In this document: one piece after another, positions 9,824 through 64,000 of the stretch
Position numbering within the stretch: position 1 is the stretch's first letter
Layout of the letters: the number at the start of each line of letters is the position of its first letter
Source of the DNA: Candidatus Aminicenantes bacterium
GTDB taxonomy: Bacteria; Acidobacteriota; Aminicenantia; Aminicenantales; Aminicenantaceae
DNA length: 64,000 bases
Assembly: GCA_016927475.1 (NCBI GenBank)
Contig: JAFGMO010000012.1
Span: forward strand, 120,875-184,874
Reading direction: 5' to 3'
The notes under the pieces: generated by a model
Database searches by the model: none
What the model was told of the DNA's origin: nothing
The model's input: only the letters and a program-made list of their open reading frames with translations
Made by a program: the position numbers and the translations under genes

Positions 9824-9886
9824 TGAAATTATCTATGGGTGTTGGCCAGATTTATGAATAGTGCAGGATAGCCTGCTTTATTCAGA
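9824..9886 (-). mobile_element. degenerate fragment of the MITE-like family (left arm plus TIR-like 16-mer)
   Basis: 9826-9867 matches the reverse complement of the left ~45 bp of the copies at 21529 and 25830. An adjacent cctgctttattcagag resembles the element terminus and overlaps the OMP gene stop. Confidence 0.5.
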
Positions 9887-10595
9887 GTCCCAGACGTAAC
9901 CCAACCCCCCAGCTTCTTTCGGTGAAGAAGGAAATTTCCGAGACAAGGGATAAAGACCGGCAGAGGTAGACATTAAATCCCAGGAACATGCTGAACAATC
10001 CCTTGGCTTTGGCTTCCATTTCCAGCCCCCCATCCGGAGAGAAAGATCCGTGCATGGTGCTGAACTTGAAGCCGAGGTTTCCTGAGAACATGAATACTCT
10101 CAATCCGAAATTTATTGCGCTCTGGAACTCGGTCAAGGCGAATGATTTGGTGATGGTGTTTCCCGTTCCTTGAAGCCGGCGGATTTGAAGGTCAATGTCC
10201 ATTCCCCCTTTGACACTGATAGTTTTGCCGTTTTTTTGCTCGATATCCACTTCAGCGACGAGGAGATATTTTAATCCTCCTCCGAAAAGGACAAAATCCC
10301 CTGTAGGCGCATAAGTGTGGGGAAAATCGGAAAAACCGGCAAAACCGTAGAAGGCCCATTGGAAACCGGGCCTGAATAAAACCTGGGCCATGGCTATATC
10401 CCGGGACACTTTTTCCGTTATCCCGTTGATTGTAAATTTGCGGGAGAGATGTGTATAGTTCACTTGAAGCGAAGCATGTCCCTCAGGCGGAATATCCGCT
10501 CCGCTTAGGATTTCCTGCGCGGATAAAACAAGAGAACATGTTGATAAAAGAACAACAACAGCGATTTTTTTCATCGTTCTTAATCCTTCCACCAA
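9882..10595 (-). CDS. putative outer-membrane beta-barrel protein
   Basis: Signal peptide MKKIAVVVLLSTCSLVLSAQE. Alternating hydrophobic pattern and a C-terminal aromatic residue region typical of small OMPs. Confidence 0.5.
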   Translation of the reverse strand: MVEGLRTMKKIAVVVLLSTCSLVLSAQEILSGADIPPEGHASLQVNYTHLSRKFTINGITEKVSRDIAMAQVLFRPGFQWAFYGFAGFSDFPHTYAPTGDFVLFGGGLKYLLVAEVDIEQKNGKTISVKGGMDIDLQIRRLQGTGNTITKSFALTEFQSAINFGLRVFMFSGNLGFKFSTMHGSFSPDGGLEMEAKAKGLFSMFLGFNVYLCRSLSLVSEISFFTERSWGVGLRLGL

Positions 10596-10719
10596 AAAAA
10601 GTCCATTTTTTAGTATGTACGGAGGTGCGGGAAGAAAGGTTCATTTTCGTTACGCGAGATGTTATAGGTTTTTCGGAGAGTAGAAGAGACGATTGACAAC
10701 CTTTTCAGTGGGTGCTATA

Positions 10720-11051
10720 AACTGCTTTATTCACGAGCCAAGCTTGCCGTAGCTGCGAGGCGTCAGCCTGTGAAGCTGAATGTCATTGCGAAGTTCCGAA
10801 GGAACTGTGGCAATCTCATGTTGCGTGGCAGTATTCCAGGAGATTGCCGCGTCGCCTTGCTCCTCGCAACGACAGGCTGCAACAAAGCAGATGCGGTAAG
10901 ATCGGCTCGCCTGAAAGGTAAATTTTGCCAACATTTTCTTAAAATGGTCATGGAAAATGTTTCGTTATCAATGTTGCCAGGAAATATTTTTAAATGACAC
11001 ATTCAATTGAAATTATCTGTTGGTGTTGGCAAAATTTATGAATAATGCAGG
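10720..11051 (-). mobile_element. MITE-like repeat, copy A (reverse orientation, ~332 bp with ~75-95 bp internal insertion)
   Basis: It is the reverse complement of copies C and D. Termini are ctgctttattcacgag...tttatgaataatgcagg, and the conserved core is gcgagccgatcttaccgcatctgctttgttgcagcc. Confidence 0.8.
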
Positions 11052-11083
11052 ATAAGCAACATAGTTTTTTCAAGAGAGGCAAC

Positions 11084-11722
11084 ATGGAAAAACAAATCAT
11101 TCCCGCCGTAATCGCCCAGGACCAGGATGAGCTGATGGCCATCCTGGATAAAATCGGAAACCACGCCCGGCTGATCCAATTGGACGTCATGGACGGGCGG
11201 TTTGTTCCCAACCGCTCTTTGGATTTTGATTTTAATATTCCAGCGGGCAAATACATTTACGAGGCCCATTTGATGATCCAGGATCCTTTGACCTGGCTTG
11301 ATCAATCAGGGGATATGATGCAGACGATCATCGCCCATTTTGAAGTCCTGGACGAGCCGGGAAATTTTATCGAAGCAGCCAAGAAAAAGGGAAAAAAGGC
11401 CGGCTTGGCTATTAACCCTGAGACGGGTTTGGACAGCATCTTACCTTATCTGAAAGATCTTGACCAGGTTCTGATCATGACGGTACATCCCGGAGCTTAC
11501 GGAAGCCGATTTCTTTCAGAGATGCTGGTAAAAATCAGAACGCTGAGAGCCAAAGCTCCCGGCTTGGATATCGAAGTTGACGGGGGCATCAGTCCGGACA
11601 CAATCTGGTTTGTTTGCGAAGCGGGCGCCAACATGTTCGTTTCAGGATCATACCTGATAAAGGCAGATAATCTGGGCAAAAATGTGGAGATTTTGTGGAA
11701 GAGCCTGCGGGACGAACTTTAA
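11084..11722 (+). CDS. rpe: ribulose-phosphate 3-epimerase
   Basis: LDVMDGRFVPN and the rest of the RPE TIM-barrel signature. The start is set at the ATG at 11084, which has an agagagg RBS. The longer 11045 ORF begins inside the repeat. Confidence 0.8.
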   Translation: MEKQIIPAVIAQDQDELMAILDKIGNHARLIQLDVMDGRFVPNRSLDFDFNIPAGKYIYEAHLMIQDPLTWLDQSGDMMQTIIAHFEVLDEPGNFIEAAKKKGKKAGLAINPETGLDSILPYLKDLDQVLIMTVHPGAYGSRFLSEMLVKIRTLRAKAPGLDIEVDGGISPDTIWFVCEAGANMFVSGSYLIKADNLGKNVEILWKSLRDEL

Positions 11723-11928
11723 CCTGCACTGTTCATAAATCCGGCCGAGGGTGATAAAGACAAGAGAAGAATCGGCCGGATTTACCTTTCAGGCGAGCCG
11801 ATCTCCCCGCATCTGCTTTGTTGCAGCGCACTCGCGGTGAACCAGCACCGCTTCGTGCGCCGACGCCTCACAGCTGCGGTAAGCTTGGCTCGTGAACAGC
11901 ACAGGCACCCTGCACTGTTCATGCAGGT
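11723..11928 (+). mobile_element. MITE-like repeat, copy B (forward, ~206 bp, shortened left arm, duplicated terminus)
   Basis: Begins cctgcactgttcataaatccggccga immediately after the rpe stop. The conserved core and right terminus are present, plus an extra ccctgcactgttcatgcagg. Confidence 0.75.
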
Positions 11929-11937
11929 TCGCTGAAT

Positions 11938-12684
11938 TTAAAATAGGCTGAAGAGTTTGGCTGACATGACAACAATGGCTGCGGCCAGAATAATGCGAAT
12001 GACTTTTTCGCCTCCTTTGACCGCCGCCCGGGCTCCCCACCAGCCTCCAAGAGCGTTGCCTGCGGCCAGAATAAGACCCAGTTTCAAATCGATGTTGCCC
12101 GTCCAGGCGAAAATAAACAAGGTTGGCAGCGTATAGATAAGGATGATAAAAACTTTGTGCATGTTGACGGTGACCAGATCGATTCTAAGAAGGTGGTAGA
12201 GGGCCGCCATAAACAGGAATCCAACACCGGCTTGAACAAAGCCACCGTAAAATCCGATTCCAAAGAGGGCGGGATAAATCAACCAACTCTTTGGGTGTCG
12301 GGTTGTTTTATTTCCTTTTTTATATCCCCGTGAGATAAACATGGAAAAAACGACGAATAAAAGCACACCTCCCAGGATTCTTTGAAAGGCCGTATGGCTG
12401 ACCCGGGTCGCCAAAAGAGCACCGGAAACCGCTCCCGGAAGAGTGAAAAGTGAGTAGATCAGACTTTCTTTGAAACCATGAACGTTCGATTTTTTAAAAG
12501 AAGTAACGGCAAAGATATTCTGGATGAAAATGGCCACACGGTTTGTCCCATTGGCTAGGGAACCTTCAAGGCCGAGAAAAATCAAGGCCGGCAAAGTTAA
12601 GGTCGACCCTCCTCCTGCATTGACGTTGATGAATCCGGCGACGGCCCCGATGGCGAATAAAAGGATTAAATGGAGAATACCCAT
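11938..12684 (-). CDS. TSUP/TauE-SafE family sulfite/anion exporter membrane protein
   Basis: 248 aa, about 8 TM segments, and the GxGGG motif repeated in two halves. Confidence 0.75.
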   Translation of the reverse strand: MGILHLILLFAIGAVAGFINVNAGGGSTLTLPALIFLGLEGSLANGTNRVAIFIQNIFAVTSFKKSNVHGFKESLIYSLFTLPGAVSGALLATRVSHTAFQRILGGVLLFVVFSMFISRGYKKGNKTTRHPKSWLIYPALFGIGFYGGFVQAGVGFLFMAALYHLLRIDLVTVNMHKVFIILIYTLPTLFIFAWTGNIDLKLGLILAAGNALGGWWGARAAVKGGEKVIRIILAAAIVVMSAKLFSLF

Positions 12685-12712
12685 CGATCACATGTTTTCC
12701 CTGATTCCCGCC

Positions 12713-14119
12713 TCAGGATATATCCCGGCCGTCCCAGCAGAAGGTACAGAGTTTTTCCTTCGGCAAACCGATGGCCTTGATGAGGTCGTCCAGCCTCTGG
12801 TACCTCAGAGTGGTTAGCTTCAGTTTATTGGAAATGGTCTCCACCATGGCCTTATATTCCGCTGTTTCATTTTGAGTGTAGATGGTCAGTTTGTCCGTAT
12901 CCCTCCCTTCAAGTTCGAAGATAGCTTTGCGTGCCGCCAGATCGAGTTCTGATTTTGACCGGGAAAAATTGAGATACGGACATTTGAAAATCAAAGGCGG
13001 ACAGGCTGGACGCATATGGACTTCTTTTGCGCCGTAATCAAAAATTCTCTGAATGGTATCCTTGAGCTGAGTTCCCCGAACAATGGAATCCTCACAGAAG
13101 AGAAGTTTTTTCCCTTCGATGATTTTACGAATGGGAATAAGCTTCATTTTGGCAACCAGGTCGCGGACCGCCTGATCCTGAGGCATGAAGCTCCGCGGCC
13201 AAGTTGGTGTGTATTTCACGAAAGGGCGTTTGAAAGGGAGGCCGGCTTCGGCGGCGTATCCCAGTCCGTGAGCTGTTCCTGAATCAGGTATTCCGGCTAC
13301 CAGTTCCGGTTGGATATCATCCCTCCGGGCCAGATAAGCGCCGCAGCGGTTTCTCACTTTTTCTACATTGATGCCCTCATAGCTGGAAGCGGGATAACCG
13401 TAATAAACCCAAAGGAACGAGCAGATTTGCATCTTGTTCCGGGGAGGGGATTTTTGTTCGATTCCTTCCGCAGAAAAGAAGACGATCTCCCCTGGCCCCA
13501 GGTACTTGACGATGTCATATTCGAGGTTTGGAAAGGCACAGGTTTCAAGAGTGGCGGCATAGCGGTCTTTTTTTTTGCCGAGGACGACGGGTGTCCGTCC
13601 GAGACGGTCCCGCGCAGCGTATATGCCTTCCCGGGTAAGAAGCAGAAGCGAACATGATCCTTTTACAGATTCCTGTACTCTTTTGATGCCGTCCAAAAAA
13701 GAGGCTTCCTGGTTGATTAGGGAGGCGACCAATTCGGTGGGATTGATGTCTCCTTCGCTCATTTCGGAAAAATGAATCCTGTTTTTTTTCAGGAGCAAAC
13801 GGGACAGTTCTCCAGGATTATGGATGGCCCCGACAGTGACAATAGAATAGTCACCGAGATGGGAACGGATGAGCAACGGTTGATCTTCATAGTCGCTTAT
13901 GCAGCCAATCCCCAGACTCCCCGACATTTGAAAGATATCTCTTTCAAATTTTGACCGGAAGGGTGTGTTTTCGATGTTGTGAATAAAGCGTGAAAATCCG
14001 GTGGCGTTTAGGGAAACCATTCCTCCCCGTCTTGTTCCGAGGTGGGAATGATAATCCGTTCCAAAAAAAAGATCAGTGAGGCAGTCGTCCTTTGCCGCAA
14101 CTCCGAATAAGCCGCCCAT
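12713..14119 (-). CDS. purF-like: amidophosphoribosyltransferase-like protein (class II Ntn amidotransferase + PRTase), catalytic Cys1 replaced by Gly
   Basis: PurF-like domain order with a PRPP-binding motif (LFCEDSIVRGTQLK) at the C-terminus. The N-terminus reads MGGLFGV where canonical PurF has MCG. Confidence 0.7.
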   Translation of the reverse strand: MGGLFGVAAKDDCLTDLFFGTDYHSHLGTRRGGMVSLNATGFSRFIHNIENTPFRSKFERDIFQMSGSLGIGCISDYEDQPLLIRSHLGDYSIVTVGAIHNPGELSRLLLKKNRIHFSEMSEGDINPTELVASLINQEASFLDGIKRVQESVKGSCSLLLLTREGIYAARDRLGRTPVVLGKKKDRYAATLETCAFPNLEYDIVKYLGPGEIVFFSAEGIEQKSPPRNKMQICSFLWVYYGYPASSYEGINVEKVRNRCGAYLARRDDIQPELVAGIPDSGTAHGLGYAAEAGLPFKRPFVKYTPTWPRSFMPQDQAVRDLVAKMKLIPIRKIIEGKKLLFCEDSIVRGTQLKDTIQRIFDYGAKEVHMRPACPPLIFKCPYLNFSRSKSELDLAARKAIFELEGRDTDKLTIYTQNETAEYKAMVETISNKLKLTTLRYQRLDDLIKAIGLPKEKLCTFCWDGRDIS

Positions 14120-14303
14120 ATGAGTTCTCCATTCCGCCTAAATATGACAGATTTTACGGGCCGTTTCAAGAGCGTATGTTTGAAAAGCAGCGGTTTTGAT
14201 TTAAGAATGGGAATAATGAAGGGGCGACCTTGACATTGGTCCATACCGGTTATAGATTAAAAAAGGGGATGAATATAAGTTTTATAAGTGTGAGTGTGTA
14301 AAT

Positions 14304-15107
14304 ATGGAAGAACGAGAAAAAATCATTATGTCGGCAGTTCTGACATTTGTGGTTCTTATTGTTGGTTTTCTTTTGCTGTATTTTCTTATTCTAAAGAAAC
14401 CGGAACCCTCCGATGCTGCTGAGAAAATCTCTTCTGAAGATGTAGCCAAAGCGGAAGTCGAAACAGGCGAAAAAGAAGGGAAACTCGAACCCGTCGAACC
14501 GGTTGATGTGGAACTCGATGAGAGTGACACCTTTATTCGGGGAATGGCGGAAGAACTCAGCAACAAGCCGACTTTCAAAGAATGGCTGGAAACAAAGAAT
14601 GTTATTCGGCGGTTTGTAGCGGCCGTCGACAACATCGCCAACGGCTTGAGTCCCCGGCAGCAAATCGATTTTTTCAAACCCCGGGGAAAATTCAAAGCCG
14701 TCACCCGGAAAGGAACGCTATATCCGGATACCTCTTCCTATAAACGTTATGATGTTGTGGCGGATGTTTTTGTCTCTTTGGATGCCAATGCGGCCGTCCA
14801 GTATTTCCGCCGTTTCAAACCGCTTATCCAGGAGGCATACAAGGAGCTGGGATATCCCAACACGGATTTTCAGGTTACCCTGGCGGCAGCCATCGAGGAG
14901 CTTCTTTCCGTACCCGTTCTCGATGACCCTCTTGCTCTGGAAAGGGAGGTTCTTTCTTATAAGATCGCGGATCAGGACCTTGAGAATCTTTCAGAAGCCC
15001 AAAAGCATCTTCTTCGAATGGGACCGGAAAATGTTCGTAAGATCCAGACTAAATTGAGAGAAATGGCTTATGAACTTCGCATGTTGAGGAAAAAAGAAAT
15101 CCCTTAA
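14304..15107 (+). CDS. membrane-anchored hypothetical protein (DUF3014-like)
   Basis: One N-terminal TM helix followed by a soluble domain. No catalytic motif recognised. Confidence 0.5.
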   Translation: MEEREKIIMSAVLTFVVLIVGFLLLYFLILKKPEPSDAAEKISSEDVAKAEVETGEKEGKLEPVEPVDVELDESDTFIRGMAEELSNKPTFKEWLETKNVIRRFVAAVDNIANGLSPRQQIDFFKPRGKFKAVTRKGTLYPDTSSYKRYDVVADVFVSLDANAAVQYFRRFKPLIQEAYKELGYPNTDFQVTLAAAIEELLSVPVLDDPLALEREVLSYKIADQDLENLSEAQKHLLRMGPENVRKIQTKLREMAYELRMLRKKEIP

Positions 15108-19840: not shown

Positions 19841-19912
19841 TTTCACAGGCTGACGGCTCGCTCCGACCCAACCTGTCCCTGCGGCAAGCTTGGCTCGTGA
19901 ATAATACAGGTT
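19841..19912 (+). mobile_element. truncated MITE-like repeat (right arm only)
   Basis: tttcacaggctgacgg...ctgcggcaagcttggctcgtgaataatacaggtt matches the right ~70 bp of the element. No left end is present. Confidence 0.6.
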
Positions 19913-20974: not shown

Positions 20975-21051
20975 TGGTCGGGACGGGCGGATTTGAACCG
21001 CCGACCCCACGCACCCCAAGCGTGTGCGCTACCAGGCTGCGCCACGTCCCG
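20975..21051 (-). tRNA. tRNA-Pro (anticodon GGG)
   Basis: The reverse complement folds as a cloverleaf. The acceptor stem is CGGGACG/CGTCCCG, the D-arm GCGC-AGCCTGGTA-GCGC, the anticodon stem-loop CACGC-TTGGGGT-GCGTG, and the T-arm GGCGG-TTCAAAT-CCGCC, followed by discriminator A and CCA. Confidence 0.85.
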
Positions 21052-21528: not shown

Positions 21529-21784
21529 CCTGCATTATTCATAAACTTGGTCGACACCAACAGATAATTTCAATATTATGTGTCGTTTAAAAGAATTTTC
21601 TGGCAATGCTGATAAAGAATCATTTTCCATGATCGTTTATAAGAAAATGTCAGCCAAGTTTACCTTTCAGGCGAGCCGATCTTACCGCATCTGCTTTGTT
21701 GCAGCCTGTTCGCGGTGCCGAGCACAGCTTCACAGGCTGACGCCTCACAGCTGCGGCAAGCTTGGCTCGTGAATAAAGCAGGTT
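21529..21784 (+). mobile_element. MITE-like repeat, copy C (full length, 256 bp)
   Basis: Termini are cctgcattattcataaa...ctcgtgaataaagcagg (imperfect ~14-bp TIRs). It is ~85% identical to copy D and has no coding capacity beyond spurious ORFs. Confidence 0.8.
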
Positions 21785-25797: not shown

Positions 25798-25829
25798 GAA
25801 ACGGGGGGAAACTTCGGTTACTCTATTTC

Positions 25830-26085
25830 CCTGCATTATTCATAAATTTGGCCGACACCAACAGATAATCCCAATATTATGTATCATTTAATGATGATTT
25901 TCGGTAAAATTGATAATGAAACATTTTCCATGGCCGTTTTCAGTAAAATGTCGGCCAAATTTACCCTTTGGGCGAGCCGATCTTACCGCTTCTGTTTTGT
26001 TGCAGCCTGTTCGCGGTGCCGAACATAGCTTCACAGGCTGACGCCTCACATCTGCGGCAAGATTGGCTCGTGAATAATACAGGTT
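25830..26085 (+). mobile_element. MITE-like repeat, copy D (full length, 256 bp)
   Basis: Same termini and core as copy C. It lies upstream of the P5C dehydrogenase gene. Confidence 0.8.
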
Positions 26086-26160
26086 TCTTAACTGTGACGG
26101 CAGTTTTATGTATAATAGCTTTCACAATTATTCTTAATTTAAAATCGAGGAGGCGTAATA

Positions 26161-30418: not shown

Positions 30419-30466
30419 AAACCTGTATTATTCATGAGATGTGTGAAAAATTGTGAATAATGCGGA
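30419..30466 (-). mobile_element. minimal (~47 bp) MITE derivative: both terminal inverted repeats with 12-bp spacer
   Basis: aacctgtattattcatgag-N12-ttgtgaataatgcgg. These match the reverse complements of the right and left termini of the 256-bp element. Confidence 0.55.
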
Positions 30467-30526
30467 ATAATGACTTTACCTCAATCCCGATAATGTGAAA
30501 GGCGGGATGGGGAGAAAGGATTCATC

Positions 30527-33487: not shown

Positions 33488-33591
33488 CGTGTTTTCCTTT
33501 GCGAATTTTAGCCTGGATTATTCAGGTTGATAATCGTAAATATTCAGGGTTGAGTTCTCACTCTTCATTGTTTTGTTTCAAAAACAAGGAA

Positions 33592-59660: not shown

Positions 59661-60644
59661 ATGAAAAAGAAAAAAAATGTCTTTAAGTCTGTCGTTTGGT
59701 GGTTAACAAAACCTGCTAAATGGAGGGAAACAATAGAGACGCTTGCTGAAAAAGAAATCAAATTAGGGGTCGTTATATTTGTATTTGTCTGTCTTGTTGT
59801 ATTCTCGTCTACATTTTTGATGGGGAGAACATATGACAGATCTCACCTGTATAATATCCTTGTAGAAGCTCATGGATTAGTTTTTGATATCTTTGTTTTT
59901 GGCATAATCGTAATGATTTTTAATAAATTTGCGGAGAGAAGACGGAATATTCTGAGGTGGATAGAAGAAATTGATGATTACAAAGGTTGGGATGAAAAAG
60001 AAGCTATGTACAGGATTGTTGGAAATATTAAAAGATTGAACAGAGAAAAAGTTACGAGGATTAATTTACATGATTGTTTTTTAGAAAAAGCCAACCTCAG
60101 TGGACTCAATCTCCAAAAAACCCATTTTGAGAATGCACATCTCGATTTTGCCAATCTCAGGTTTGCCAGTCTGATGAAAGCCAATCTCGAAGGAGCCCAT
60201 CTCAAGGGAGCTCATCTTGTAGGAGCCAATCTTGAGAAAGCAAATCTCTGGGAAGTCGATTTCATGGGAGCCGAACTATTCGCAGCAAACCTCGTTGGAG
60301 CCCATCTTAGTGGAGCTCGTCTCAAGGGGGCATGTTTAGCAGTGACCAATCTTGCGGGTACTGTTTTCTGGAGAGCAGATCTTGAGGGTGTCGATCTCGG
60401 GTCTGCCCATCTCGTGGGAGCCGACCTATTCGAAGCAAATCTCGGTCGAGTAAATTTCGATCGAGCAAATCTCGATCGAGTAAATCTCGAGGGAGCTAAT
60501 CTCACTGGAGCAAAAAATCTTACACTTAATCAACTATCAAAGGTTGAAACATTATATAAAGCAAAACTCGATCCAGAGCTTTTAGCTGAAGTGAAGCAAA
60601 AGTATCCGCATCTTTTGGAAAATCATAAACCTGAGAAGAAATGA
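59661..60644 (+). CDS. membrane-anchored pentapeptide-repeat protein (copy 1)
   Basis: Two N-terminal TM helices and a conserved ~60-aa juxtamembrane domain (EAHGLVFDIFVFG...WDEKEAMYRIVGNIKRLN). About 45 pentapeptide units (A(N/D)L.G) follow. RBS agggaggag. The gene lies in a ~30% GC region. Confidence 0.7.
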   Translation: MKKKKNVFKSVVWWLTKPAKWRETIETLAEKEIKLGVVIFVFVCLVVFSSTFLMGRTYDRSHLYNILVEAHGLVFDIFVFGIIVMIFNKFAERRRNILRWIEEIDDYKGWDEKEAMYRIVGNIKRLNREKVTRINLHDCFLEKANLSGLNLQKTHFENAHLDFANLRFASLMKANLEGAHLKGAHLVGANLEKANLWEVDFMGAELFAANLVGAHLSGARLKGACLAVTNLAGTVFWRADLEGVDLGSAHLVGADLFEANLGRVNFDRANLDRVNLEGANLTGAKNLTLNQLSKVETLYKAKLDPELLAEVKQKYPHLLENHKPEKK

Positions 60645-60791
60645 GGTAGTTATTTCAATATTCCTGCTTTTCTTTTCAACAGATCCTCTCCCCTAAATTC
60701 TAACTTCCTATGATGTAAATCCCGCCTAATTCAGTTAAAATAACAAATTCAGCATTATCCAAAATTCATTAAAGGGAGGAGTATTGTTGTG

Positions 60792-61643
60792 ATGAATAAA
60801 ATCTCAAAAATTATTAAATCTATCGGCCAGGGGATAATTAAGTTTTTAAAGTTGTTGTGGGGAATGATAGAGAGACTGGCAGAAAAAGAAGTTTTTTTGG
60901 GACTCATACTTCTGATAATTATTGGGTTTTTTGTTATATATCTAACTTTACATGCTGGAAACAAATACAAAGATACTTTCTTGAATAACATTTTTATTGA
61001 AGCTCACGGACTTGTGTTTGACATCTTCGTTTTTGGTGTGATTGTCATAATTTTTGATAAGATCGCAGAAAGACGACGGAATATTAAAAGATGGAAAGAA
61101 GGAATTGACGACTTTAGAGGTTGGGATGAAAAAGAAGCTATGTACAGGATTGTTGGAAATATTAAAAGATTGAACAAAGAAAAAGTAACCGAGATTGATT
61201 TAAATCTTTGTTTTTTAGAAAAGGCCGATCTAAGTTGGACTGATCTTAGGGGGGGGGATCTCGAGAGGGCCAATCTCATTGGAGCTAATCTCATTGGAGC
61301 CGATCTTAGGGGAGCCATTCTAATTGGAGCCGATCTCAGTTGGACTGATCTTAGGGGGGGGAATCTCGAGGGAGCCGTTCTCATTGGAGCTAATCTCATT
61401 GGAGCTAATCTTAAGGAGGCTAATCTCGAGGAGGCTAATCTCATTGGAGCCGATCTTAGGGGAGTAAAGAAGCTAACAATTGATCAACTATCAAGAGTTA
61501 AGACTTTATTTAGGGTAGAAAACCTTGATCCTGGATTTAGAGCTGAAGTGAAGGAGAAGTATCCGCAGCTTTTTAGAGAGGCCTATGTGGATATATTAGA
61601 TAAAAGGCGATTGAGGGCCAGGGATCCCGCCCCCCGAGATTGA
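60792..61643 (+). CDS. membrane-anchored pentapeptide-repeat protein (copy 2, tandem paralog)
   Basis: Same N-terminal architecture and a duplicated leader/RBS. The repeat region is more regular (LIGANLIGADLRGA...) and carries an internal ~100-bp duplication and two in-frame poly-G tracts. Confidence 0.7.
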   Translation: MNKISKIIKSIGQGIIKFLKLLWGMIERLAEKEVFLGLILLIIIGFFVIYLTLHAGNKYKDTFLNNIFIEAHGLVFDIFVFGVIVIIFDKIAERRRNIKRWKEGIDDFRGWDEKEAMYRIVGNIKRLNKEKVTEIDLNLCFLEKADLSWTDLRGGDLERANLIGANLIGADLRGAILIGADLSWTDLRGGNLEGAVLIGANLIGANLKEANLEEANLIGADLRGVKKLTIDQLSRVKTLFRVENLDPGFRAEVKEKYPQLFREAYVDILDKRRLRARDPAPRD

Positions 61644-61737
61644 AATGATCGCTGTGCGGTTATGCGCCTCATTTGGTAGACGTGGGGATGGTGGGAATAT
61701 TCTCATTTTAAATTCTATCTGGCACATAGCTAAATTA

Positions 61738-62754
61738 TTAAAAATTGGCAACTGGTATAGAAGTTGAATTGATAATTCTATTAATTTTTTCTTCCAAATA
61801 TTGTGGCTCTGTATAGGGAGGTTTTACTACCTTTTGAAAAAGATTTAAGAATTGCCTGTCAGCAATTCCCCTAAATAGTTCATTTCTCTTTGCTGAATAG
61901 TCAATTAAAGAGTTTTTTATATCCATAAATTCAGAATAACAAATAGTTATTGCTTCCTCCTCGATGTTTTTTGCAAACTCTCTTACCTTGTTTTCTATAT
62001 TTTCATTAATAGGGGGCTTAATATCTTTTATCTTTTCAAGAATTGTTTTGATATTTTCTAGTTTTTTTTTGTCTTCGTCGTAGGCGTTAATTAGATTGGT
62101 TATTTTTCTGTCGAGCTCTTTTTTGATTATTTGCCTTTTCTTAAGGGCTTTTGTTTCTTTGAAAATATACCTTCGATTAATACAATCAACTTTTATAATT
62201 GATAAAAAATTTTGCTTTCTTAAGTTGCTGTATCTGATTTTCAGCAAATAACTAGATATTTTTTCAGCTGTCTCGCGTCTAAGAAATGGAAGATCAAGTT
62301 TTATTTTTTCAGTAATAGTTGCAACAGATTTTGCATCTCTGTTTTTAAATAAGATATGGAGATCTTGTTTAAAAAATTGTATAAAATCCCCGGACTTTAG
62401 TGGAACATAAGAATTAAATTGAAGATAGTAAAGATTGCTTTCAACTGTTTCTATTTCAATATTCAATGCAGCACTCTCACCAATATTTTTTAAAATCATT
62501 GAAAGAGGTTCTACACCGATTATTACACAAGGCCTCAACATCAAATCTGTTTGTGTTGCAGTGGCTTTTTTAAGTCTATTGGTTTCCCATGCATACCACC
62601 AAATCGCAAGGAACGTTAAAAATAAAATAAAAGTTGAAACAATTTGGAGCTGAATAGGAATTTTTGCTCCAGAAAATATACAACTTAGTTTATATAAAAA
62701 AACATCAAATATCATAACCCCTCCATTAGATTCTTGTTGAAAAGCATTAACCAA
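61738..62754 (-). CDS. hypothetical membrane-anchored protein (unknown function)
   Basis: 338-aa ORF with one N-terminal TM helix (IQLQIVSTFILFLTFLAIWWYAW) and a Lys/Glu-rich helical C-terminal region. AT-rich. No recognisable motif. Confidence 0.45.
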   Translation of the reverse strand: MVNAFQQESNGGVMIFDVFLYKLSCIFSGAKIPIQLQIVSTFILFLTFLAIWWYAWETNRLKKATATQTDLMLRPCVIIGVEPLSMILKNIGESAALNIEIETVESNLYYLQFNSYVPLKSGDFIQFFKQDLHILFKNRDAKSVATITEKIKLDLPFLRRETAEKISSYLLKIRYSNLRKQNFLSIIKVDCINRRYIFKETKALKKRQIIKKELDRKITNLINAYDEDKKKLENIKTILEKIKDIKPPINENIENKVREFAKNIEEEAITICYSEFMDIKNSLIDYSAKRNELFRGIADRQFLNLFQKVVKPPYTEPQYLEEKINRIINSTSIPVANF

Positions 62755-62868
62755 GCCTCCTGCCGGAATTATTCTACCAAAACCAGGCTATTTCAGGAAG
62801 GGATTGTCTTTACTAGGGGAGGGGAGGCTGGTAAAATGTTTGTATCAGCATATAAGGAGATTTTATAT

Positions 62869-63444
62869 ATGTCAAAAGGAAAGGTAAAAATAATCTTTTG
62901 GTGGCTAAGTCCATTTGTTGCCATAATTTCTCTAATCAATTTCCTTTTTTTTGATAATAGAATATTTAAGTTTATCTGGGAAAAAATTATTGTGTATTTA
63001 TGTAATTTAGATTTACCAGATTTAGTTTTTATAATTGCAATTCTAGTAATATTCTTTTTTTTGTGTGTGTTAAATAGAAAAATAAAAAGTGAAATGATTT
63101 CATTTAAAAAAGATTTCAATGAAATCAAACGACATCCTACTGAAGAAATGAAAGTCATCTTGGAAAGAATCATGAAAGCAAAAAATTGTAAAGCTAATGA
63201 AACATATTTACAAAGAGAATTTATAAAAAAATTTAATTTAGAAAATAAAGATAAACATGTTTTTTGGCAAAGATATAATGAAAATATAAGAAAATTAAAA
63301 AATATCCAAGCAATAGAAGAAACAGGAAGTCTTGACACTGAAATTTATTTGACAATTAGAAGCCCCTTTGGAGATATCCTTTATAATGAATGGGGATTAA
63401 ATATATCCTTGAAAGAAAATATTGAGAAGGGGAGGCGAGAATGA
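62869..63444 (+). CDS. hypothetical small membrane protein (unknown function)
   Basis: The start is set at ATG 62869, which has an aaggag RBS. There are two TM helices and then a soluble Lys-rich domain. It is divergent from the preceding gene. Confidence 0.4.
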   Translation: MSKGKVKIIFWWLSPFVAIISLINFLFFDNRIFKFIWEKIIVYLCNLDLPDLVFIIAILVIFFFLCVLNRKIKSEMISFKKDFNEIKRHPTEEMKVILERIMKAKNCKANETYLQREFIKKFNLENKDKHVFWQRYNENIRKLKNIQAIEETGSLDTEIYLTIRSPFGDILYNEWGLNISLKENIEKGRRE

Positions 63445-64000
63445 AAGATAATAAAATAGAAATTACTATACTCGAGAAGGATAAAAATGAAAAAATCCAG
63501 GAGATGAAAAGAATAATAGACGAAATTGAAAAAGTACCGATTGATGAGTTAATTCAAGAAAAAGAATTGGGAACATATAATTTTAAGGAGCAAAAACCTG
63601 TTTTTGAATACATCAAAAATATATTTGAGGATATTAAAAACCTTAGTTACAAAGATATTCCTCTGAAAAAATTGGAAGAGCTTTCAACTGCAGCAAATGA
63701 TTGCAGGAAACTGTTCAAAACAGTAACTGATTTCAGAATTAATTATACTGAAGAACAAAGGAGAATAAAGGGCGATGAGATTCTTTCTTTTGAAAAACGA
63801 TTGTTTGACCTTGTAATACCAATACTTGTCCATTTGTCGGGGGCAGAGGTGTTAAGGAGGGTAAATCTAGCATATAAGAGAATCCAATCACGATATGATG
63901 AAGCTAGAGAATGTGTTGTAGAAATAAAAAAAATAAAAGAATCTTCACAAATAGCTGCAAGAGAGATGGGGGTAACAACTCAGGCAAATTATTTTGAAAG
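63441..64000 (+). CDS. hypothetical coiled-coil protein (partial, continues past window end)
   Basis: The ATG overlaps the upstream stop (ATGA). The open frame runs to the window edge and is Lys/Glu-rich and helical. It is not in the ORF track because it is incomplete. Confidence 0.4.
   Translation, partial: MKDNKIEITILEKDKNEKIQEMKRIIDEIEKVPIDELIQEKELGTYNFKEQKPVFEYIKNIFEDIKNLSYKDIPLKKLEELSTAANDCRKLFKTVTDFRINYTEEQRRIKGDEILSFEKRLFDLVIPILVHLSGAEVLRRVNLAYKRIQSRYDEARECVVEIKKIKESSQIAAREMGVTTQANYFE

Follow-up and report, generated by a model that had tools for sequence, protein, structure and literature searches.

Short non-coding repeats with the hallmarks of MITEs and a conserved interior fold in the chromosomes of Candidatus Aminicenantes

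Prokaryotic MITEs such as the Correia element (CREE) of Neisseria, ERIC, Chunjie of Geobacter, and QMITE1 and QMITE2 of Coxiella are shorter than 500 bp, carry terminal inverted repeats and direct repeats that decay with age, have no coding capacity, lie between genes and occur as many full, truncated and mini derivatives, and their transcripts or strands form stable stem-loops (PMC10969869). The repeat family described here shares all of these features. Among transposons with related target preferences, piggyBac makes 4-bp duplications of TTAA, with TTAG and CTAA variants, and has ends starting with CCC, and IS1380 was used as its prokaryotic outgroup (PMC10813416). The IS5 duplication motif is YTAR (PMC10359306). 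The REP/BIME and REPIN sequences resemble the present element as well: they lie between genes, often at gene 3' ends, are highly repeated and form hairpins whose structure is conserved. Unlike it, REPs depend on RAYT tyrosine transposases for their mobility and lack both target-site duplications and distinct terminal inverted repeats. To our knowledge, almost nothing is known about the transposons of Aminicenantes, and literature searches gave no earlier description of MITEs or insertion sequences in this group.

The element was analysed in a 64-kb stretch of Candidatus Aminicenantes DNA (hereafter the window, meaning the whole stretch) and in loci from public genomes and metagenomes (numbered with the prefix L). 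By its size, termini, duplications, derivatives and foldability it is a textbook prokaryotic MITE. What is new is the Aminicenantes family itself, unrelated in sequence to the known prokaryotic MITEs and hosted by a different, uncultured phylum, and an interior that is constrained more strongly and deeply than usual. The termini, the 4-bp duplications and the presence/absence differences, together with the lack of coding capacity, of an Rfam match and of a transposase, point to a genuine MITE. It is thus very probable that the repeats are non-coding, non-autonomous DNA transposons of ~254 bp (short form, ~200 bp) in Candidatus Aminicenantes chromosomes. The initial annotation of the window had proposed a MITE-like family, and this interpretation was supported, the checks that were run being mostly positive. 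The strong structural constraint on the interior and the span of the family over the whole candidate phylum are the features that it had missed.

BLASTN with the two full copies and an nhmmer profile of 71 family members recovered every copy and derivative previously assigned to the ~256-bp family, and the profile returned the same copy set in the window and nothing further. Degenerate patterns for the core and the terminus matched 5 and 7 times in the window, where the chance levels obtained from shuffles were 0.01 and 0.05, respectively. The window copies are confirmed as a real repeat family, with a chance expectation of about zero. Table 1 lists the features of the window. Several boundaries were revised. 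Both full copies are in the forward orientation as annotated, and each ends two bases before the former limits (21784 and 26085) because the element ends in ...CAGG and the TT that follows is part of the duplicated target. The short copy assigned to 11723-11928 exists and resolves into a short form plus a solo terminus, and the mini-element has both termini as described and begins at 30422 instead of 30419, with 45 bp rather than 47. The right-arm fragment had been placed at 19841-19912, and the left-arm fragment with its nested terminus proved to be abutted by a separate right-terminus fragment. The reverse copy does contain an internal insertion, and it matches element positions 1-181 and 197-256 in BLASTN.

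Table 1 Copies and derivatives of the element in the 64-kb window.
Feature	Position	Strand	Length	Remarks
Full copy C1	21529..21782	+	254 bp	BLASTN, profile search, folding
C1, left terminus/P1 5' arm	21529-21541			
C1, P2 hairpin	21542-21662			
C1, P2.5	21663-21671			3-bp mini-hairpin
C1, P3	21672-21769			Conserved hairpin
C1, right terminus/P1 3' arm	21770-21782			
Full copy C2	25830..26083	+	254 bp	86% identical to C1 over full length
Full copy C3	10721..11051	-		Apex of P3 interrupted by nested 93-bp element
Nested insertion within C3	10779..10871	-	93 bp	
Short-form copy C4	11723..11905	+	183 bp	P2 cut to ~55 nt
Solo terminus	11909..11927	+		CCTGCACTGTTCAT + GCAGG; 3 nt past C4 right end; tail-to-head junction
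Right-arm fragment C5	19841..19910	+		P3 3' half and right terminus
Left-arm fragment C6	9824..9867	-		Left terminus and P2 start
Right-terminus fragment	9872..9885	-	14 nt	CTGAATAAAGCAGG; 4 nt (CTAT) upstream of C6; tail-to-head junction
Mini-element C7	30422..30466	+	45 bp	Both termini and 17-nt interior
Palindrome	33512..33526	.	15 bp	Perfect-type, CCTGGATTATTCAGG = outer ~7 nt of each terminus; newly added derivative

As previously stated, the copies sit between unrelated genes in either orientation. C2, for example, has a PQQ/HDIG gene on one side and an L-glutamate semialdehyde dehydrogenase gene on the other. It is bordered by an exact 4-bp target-site duplication, TTTC (25826-25829 and 26084-26087), and C3 by another exact one, which reads TTAT along the element and ATAA on the + strand (10717-10720 and 11052-11055). 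The flanks of C1, CTAC and TTAG, represent a decayed duplication with 2 of 4 bases matching. The newly recognised 15-bp palindrome is flanked by TTAG and TTGA, has the same form in L026, L027, L056 and L066, and is a deletion or footprint derivative; such palindromic derivatives look REP-like. A full copy lies downstream of IMPDH in L006; that it occupies the site of the palindrome is not supported, as the two spacers do not align. A 237-aa ORF without family match (9882-10595, - strand) terminates at the TGA of the right-terminus fragment at 9872-9885, and the insertion of the element at this position may have reshaped the 3' end of the ORF.

The hallmarks of transposition were examined in 101 complete copies with both termini. 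In agreement with the imperfect inverted repeats of ~14 bp described earlier, the family termini are 14-bp inverted repeats, CCTGAATTATTCAT ... GTGAATAATCCAGG, which are paired in 93-97% of the cells of a 71-copy alignment, and the copies fall into two size classes of 250-258 bp and 192-210 bp. The search for target-site duplications that had been proposed was positive: the outer 4 nt are identical at both ends in 32 of the 101 copies, where 0.4 is expected by chance. Among 68 non-tandem copies, 27 have exact duplications and 17 are off by one base (44/68 with at most one mismatch). Both flanks read T/C-T-A-A/G, giving the target consensus YTAR, and the commonest duplications are TTAA (9), TTAG (6) and CTAA (3). 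Since non-palindromic duplications such as TTTC, TTAT, TGAA and TTGT occur, four bases are duplicated and a model with a 2-bp TA target is excluded. In this respect the element differs from the known prokaryotic MITEs, which duplicate TA.

These data bear on an origin from a single-strand-DNA system, either REP/REPIN with RAYT or a PATE of the IS200/IS605 type, in which the hairpins would be recognition signals. Such an origin would suit an element that folds equally well under DNA and RNA parameters, keeps its structure without strand bias, and receives other elements in its hairpin apices. We consider it very improbable, because varied exact 4-bp duplications on 32 copies and inverted-repeat termini are features that such systems do not have, and no Y1/HUH transposase was found in the window.

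YTAR includes TAA or TAG, and copies are therefore often located on stop codons. Nine co-directional upstream ORFs terminate inside the duplication, and in the window the left flank of C4 is TTAA (11719-11722), whose TAA is the stop codon of the ribulose-phosphate 3-epimerase (rpe) ORF. Gene 3' ends are favoured, with 15 copies in convergent spacers vs 3 in divergent ones.

The comparison of filled and empty sites suggested earlier revealed presence/absence differences between related contigs. L021 and L047 are orthologous at 69-77% identity, and a copy lies between two genes in L021 where L047 has an 80-nt spacer. Similarly, the dNK-panB spacer interrupted by C7 in the window is continuous in the Aminicenantes MAG contigs L012 and L015, which lack C7 and thus show the empty site. 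Identity reaches 95% between non-orthologous copies, whereas copies sharing one contig are 61-91% identical, which indicates that several subfamilies coexist and that some were active fairly recently.

The panB leader near this site (GACTTTACCTCAATCCYGATA..AAGGCRGGATGGGGAGAAAGGATT; window 30471-30526, L012 5806-5857, L015 5678-5729) was observed to be conserved between lineages that share only ~70% identity in their coding genes. With its hairpin, ATCCYG/CRGGAT, and no Rfam match at the gathering threshold, this leader may be a cis-regulatory element.

In 24 of the 101 copies another copy follows, always tail-to-head, with a spacer of 4 nt in 15 cases and 3 nt in 5, and no inverted arrangement of abutting copies was found among the 101. 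This strict pairing with a 3-4-nt spacer distinguishes the element from the known prokaryotic MITEs, and it is not predicted by simple random cut-and-paste into YTAR, which counts against the MITE account. The two members of a pair mostly come from different subfamilies and hence do not represent simple duplications, and re-insertion into a regenerated YTAR would give both orientations. The pairs suggest some form of end-directed, oriented insertion. End-targeted insertion is shown by IS911.

The interior structure was investigated with an alignment of 71 full-size copies, a consensus structure from RNAalifold, and explicit counting of pairs. The paired termini (P1) enclose three helices, P2, P2.5 and P3, in a four-way fold. 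The base of P2 is conserved (AAAAATGCCGAYA / TRTCGGCATTTTT) and consists of an A-run and a T-run forming 13-15 bp, P2.5 is a mini-hairpin with a 3-nt loop (CCY NNN RGG), and P3 is a GC-rich hairpin of ~100 nt. The long hairpin predicted in the initial annotation was borne out, with folding z-scores of -6.5 (+ strand) and -7.1 (- strand) for RNA and -7.0 for DNA, and under DNA parameters the same fold is the minimum-energy structure. Over the 71 copies, the 58 pairs of the consensus are paired in 94.6% of cells, compared with 32-40% in slid controls. Changes on both sides were found in 35 of the 58 pairs, and none of 500 shuffles reached any of these measures. At single pairs, as many as three Watson-Crick types occur (for example, C-G 37 / U-A 17 / G-C 10), and P2.5 is split between C-G (31) and U-A (30).

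Conservation is distributed unevenly. The mean pairwise identity is 86-88% in the termini, 81% in P3 and 43% in the P2 interior. The P2 region keeps a length of 117-124 nt across 14 subfamilies with interiors that share less than 55% identity with one another, and only the base stem is common to the P2 folds. A hypervariable P2 interior of fixed length sets the element apart from the known prokaryotic MITEs, as do the four-way junction, the ~100-nt hairpin nearly as conserved as the termini, and its extent as a phylum-level group. The interior is under structural constraint and unusually well conserved, with P3 nearly as conserved as the termini, and internal conservation near that of the termini exceeds the needs of a plain deletion-derivative MITE.

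One explanation of the covariation is that the compensatory changes are unselected and reflect mutational correction of one arm by the other, through intrastrand template switching or gene conversion in quasi-palindromes, in a plain MITE. Template switching in long palindromes is an established mechanism, the long palindromes of P1 and P3 are good substrates for it, and the G.T and A.C intermediates are symmetric. This explanation is nevertheless quite unlikely, since it does not account for the covarying P2.5, a helix of 3 bp closed by a 3-nt loop, the invariant unpaired stretches GATCT and CATCTGC, the fixed length of P2 around its hypervariable interior in 14 subfamilies, or the difference in identity between P3 and the P2 interior.

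Another is that the conserved core (P2.5 and P3) is a small or cis-regulatory RNA (an sRNA, a transcript stabiliser or a terminator) kept by the host and carried on transposon ends. In its favour are the strong covariation, which extends to a 3-bp hairpin for which arm correction at the DNA level hardly accounts, and the identity of P3, at 78-81% (78-80% between the window and the MAGs) compared with 65-72% nt identity for housekeeping genes of the same lineages. Both full copies in the window carry a sigma-70-like -35/-10 pair in the 5' arm of P2, the A-run/stem/T-run of the P2 base resembles a bidirectional terminator, the copies prefer gene 3' ends, and MITE-borne sRNAs and terminators have been documented elsewhere (PMC10969869). 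The wobble cells argue otherwise: an RNA encoded on one strand would tolerate G.U and purge A.C, but 125 G.T and 118 A.C cells were counted with no strand asymmetry, which leaves a strand-specific RNA without support. The orientation of copies between co-directional genes is likewise unbiased (13 antisense vs 8 sense), no T-run follows P3, and no Rfam family matches. The -10-like box is specific to a subfamily rather than family-wide, and the promoter reading was therefore not adopted; promoter-like hits were also enriched throughout the scanned region. We regard a host-kept RNA as unlikely, and an RNA role of the fold is unproven. The constraint that we favour would act at the DNA or element level, on transposition competence.

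The element was described as lacking coding capacity, and the analysis supports this. Column variability at the three phases is 0.45, 0.49 and 0.53 bits, without a 3-base period, and 15 of the 71 copies contain frame-shifting 1-nt indels. A 63-codon ORF across C1 was rejected as coding because C2 and the family consensus have stops in its frame, in addition to the lack of periodicity and the indels. A refuting possibility raised at the outset, namely that the copies were parts of some longer conserved gene or of rRNA/tRNA-related sequence, was looked at and is not the case. One P3 frame is stop-free in 61 of the 71 copies, as a gene piece might be, but neither the variability profile nor the indels fit a gene, and the copies lie in both orientations with unrelated genes on either side. 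In the Rfam 15 scan of the whole window at the gathering threshold, only tRNA-Pro was detected (20975-21051, the sole RNA gene and outside all copies), and a permissive scan of C1 gave no match, with a best E of 1.6. We give a gene- or RNA-derived origin almost no credence.

The hairpins of the element are landing sites for other small elements and for a group II intron. The insertion nested in C3, GTCGTTGCGAGGAGCAAGGCGACGCGGCAATCTC ... GAGATTGCC..TTCGCAATGAC, is made of two ~34-nt units in inverted arrangement and represents a second family of small repeats built from such units (GTCRTTGCGAGGAGCRAAGCGACGYGGCAATCTC). Members of this family were also observed in the P3 of L021, L025, L053, L075 and L129; they land repeatedly in or near the P3 apex, and in some cases the 3' arm has been lost. 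Another non-coding repeat, the third, is ~270 bp long, has inverted ends of its own (~20 bp, ATGAAATTCAGGTGTGGCT...) and a conserved core (...ATCAGAAGGCTAAATCTTCAATGTCGC), and gave no Rfam match. It sits in P2 or P3 of copies in either orientation, at ~495-760 in L010, at ~1900-2165 in L012, and in L013, L027, L029, L042, L052, L077, L083, L084 and L094. In L036 (76-2465), a copy is split by a complete group II intron on the - strand, with Rfam domains D1-D4 at 2151-2268 and D5/6 at 299-447 and a reverse-transcriptase ORF with YADD at 459-1889. An additional ~18-nt motif, TCCGACCCAACCTGTCCC, is held by C5 (window 19862-19879). In the form CCGACCCAACCT(G/A)(T/C)CCC it occupies the same place in the P3 3' arm of L035, L128 and L026, which are unrelated copies, and it represents either a very small insertion element or a variant that arose repeatedly.

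A further repeat of ~180 bp, 91-95% identical between loci, was observed at 5870-6046 of L083 and in L012, L027, L084, L015, L092 and L002. It begins with the same terminus as the present element (CGTGAATTATTCAC / CCTGGATTATTCAT) and has a different interior (...CATGGACACTGGTAAGTCCCTGCGAAAGACAGGGATTTCCCC...), and could represent a sister family of MITEs mobilised by the same transposase.

In the window, none of the 52 non-overlapping ORFs with a length of 110 aa or more gave a match to a transposase domain, consistent with the earlier statement that the window contains no cognate transposase. The parent IS with the same termini that was to be sought was found neither in the window nor in the 878 kb of loci, and the missing autonomous partner counts against the MITE account. 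Terminus pairs 0.5-4 kb apart in these 878 kb enclosed nested elements or genes of the host and nothing else. The enclosed genes, among them a beta-lactamase-fold hydrolase (L094), sulfatases and pilins, were false leads, and a TPR gene adjoining the solo terminus of L111 was another. When 865 ORFs were clustered all against all, no protein was seen repeatedly beside copies, tblastn with IS5 InsH gave no match in the loci, and tblastn and phmmer with the ISEcp1 transposase gave none in any locus or the window.

The ends were compared with reference ends read from annotated plasmids. Both the element and IS1380 (ISEcp1)/piggyBac have ends starting with CC(T). Each of the two ISEcp1 ends, CCTAGATTCTACGT and CCTAAATTCCACGT (pC15-1a, L147), is identical to the 14-bp family terminus at 9 positions, a modest similarity that is suggestive rather than diagnostic and could be coincidental. 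The 4-bp duplication falls within the 4-5 bp of IS1380, and TTAA is favoured, with TTAG and CTAA variants as in piggyBac; on the other hand, the duplications of ISEcp1 and IS1247 are 5 bp, the latter reported as a 5-bp direct repeat (PMC3281130). IS5 shares the 4-bp duplication with the motif YTAR. Its ends, GGAAGGTGCGAACAAG (plasmid Rts1, L148), are unrelated to CCTGAATTATTCAT, IS5-type ends (GGAAGGTGCGAA...) are not present on the element, and neither the window nor the loci contain an IS5-like ORF. From these sequence comparisons, an IS1380/piggyBac-like enzyme would fit best, although only tentatively, and an IS5-like enzyme would be the second-best fit, with a probability only slightly lower. 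With the ISEcp1 match limited to 9/14 and the IS5 ends unlike those of the element, the enzyme family is a guess.

In the mechanism that we propose for these MITEs, a DDE-type transposase encoded elsewhere in the genome would act in trans, binding the termini and making 4-nt staggered cuts, and the copies would spread by cut-and-paste or by copying. An enzyme of the IS1380/piggyBac superfamily would best match termini that start with CC, a duplication of 4 bp and a TTAA-type target; one of the IS5 group would fit YTAR but not the ends. The four-way fold may have been selected because it is needed for propagation of the element, either in the form of folded or cruciform DNA or by offering the transposition complex subterminal sites for protein binding. 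A stronger version, which we consider rather unlikely, is that the four-way junction is an obligatory part of the transposition substrate and that an IS1380/piggyBac-like enzyme docks new copies tail-to-head onto old ones, or else that the element is a phylum-wide RNA/DNA device. If the former were true, the P1-P2-P2.5-P3 junction would be recognised as folded or cruciform DNA and the element would be a mobile, self-contained nucleic-acid module beyond a decayed remnant; if the latter, the device would be exploited by the host at gene 3' ends.

The earlier proposal to search for copies elsewhere was followed. A 21-nt core pattern found 16 loci in four MAGs in a scan of one genome per species, with several hits at contig ends, as expected if assemblies break at a repeat. 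A metagenome scan gave at least 120 loci, mostly from sediment metagenomes. The density of copies in the window would predict hundreds per closed genome. In total, more than 130 further loci in public genomes and metagenomes were found, all traceable to Candidatus Aminicenantes or sediment metagenomes. The profile gave 226 matches in 136 loci (878 kb) and the window. A right-end scan of viral contigs gave 10 chance matches and no true copy. The element is widespread in uncultured Aminicenantes sediment bacteria. Three of the four MAGs are labelled Candidatus Aminicenantes and one 'uncultured Eubacteriales'. The latter (L001, L003, L004, L013, L014 and L016, contigs CAZYMU01...) carries the same element family, and its label is probably wrong or the bin mixed. 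In L077, a 16S-tRNA-tRNA-23S operon (10943-14947) lies ~240 bp from a left-terminus fragment (10669-10702), and its 16S gene could place one host firmly in taxonomy.

The window itself has ordinary chromosomal gene content (his genes, rpe, surE, pantothenate genes, IMPDH, SecA, UvrB/C and NrfA/H) and is syntenic with two Aminicenantes MAGs at 65-72% nt identity in the blocks dNK-panB-panC and IMPDH-SecA, which marks its host as a relative of Aminicenantes. At 60000-64000 the G+C content falls from ~47% to 29-38%, and this region, with two pentapeptide-repeat proteins and three ORFs without Pfam hits, may be foreign DNA.

These results describe a family of mobile elements that is abundant in one of the major uncultured lineages of sediments. 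The element explains the frequent breaks of Aminicenantes MAG contigs at its sequences, and the family model lets annotators mask ~250-bp repeats in which spurious small ORFs would otherwise be called. Handles on how transposases recognise non-autonomous elements are provided by the deep conservation of structure, the constant P2 length and the strict tail-to-head pairing, and the TTAA-type target together with the CC ends raises the testable idea of a bacterial piggyBac-like (IS1380) MITE system.
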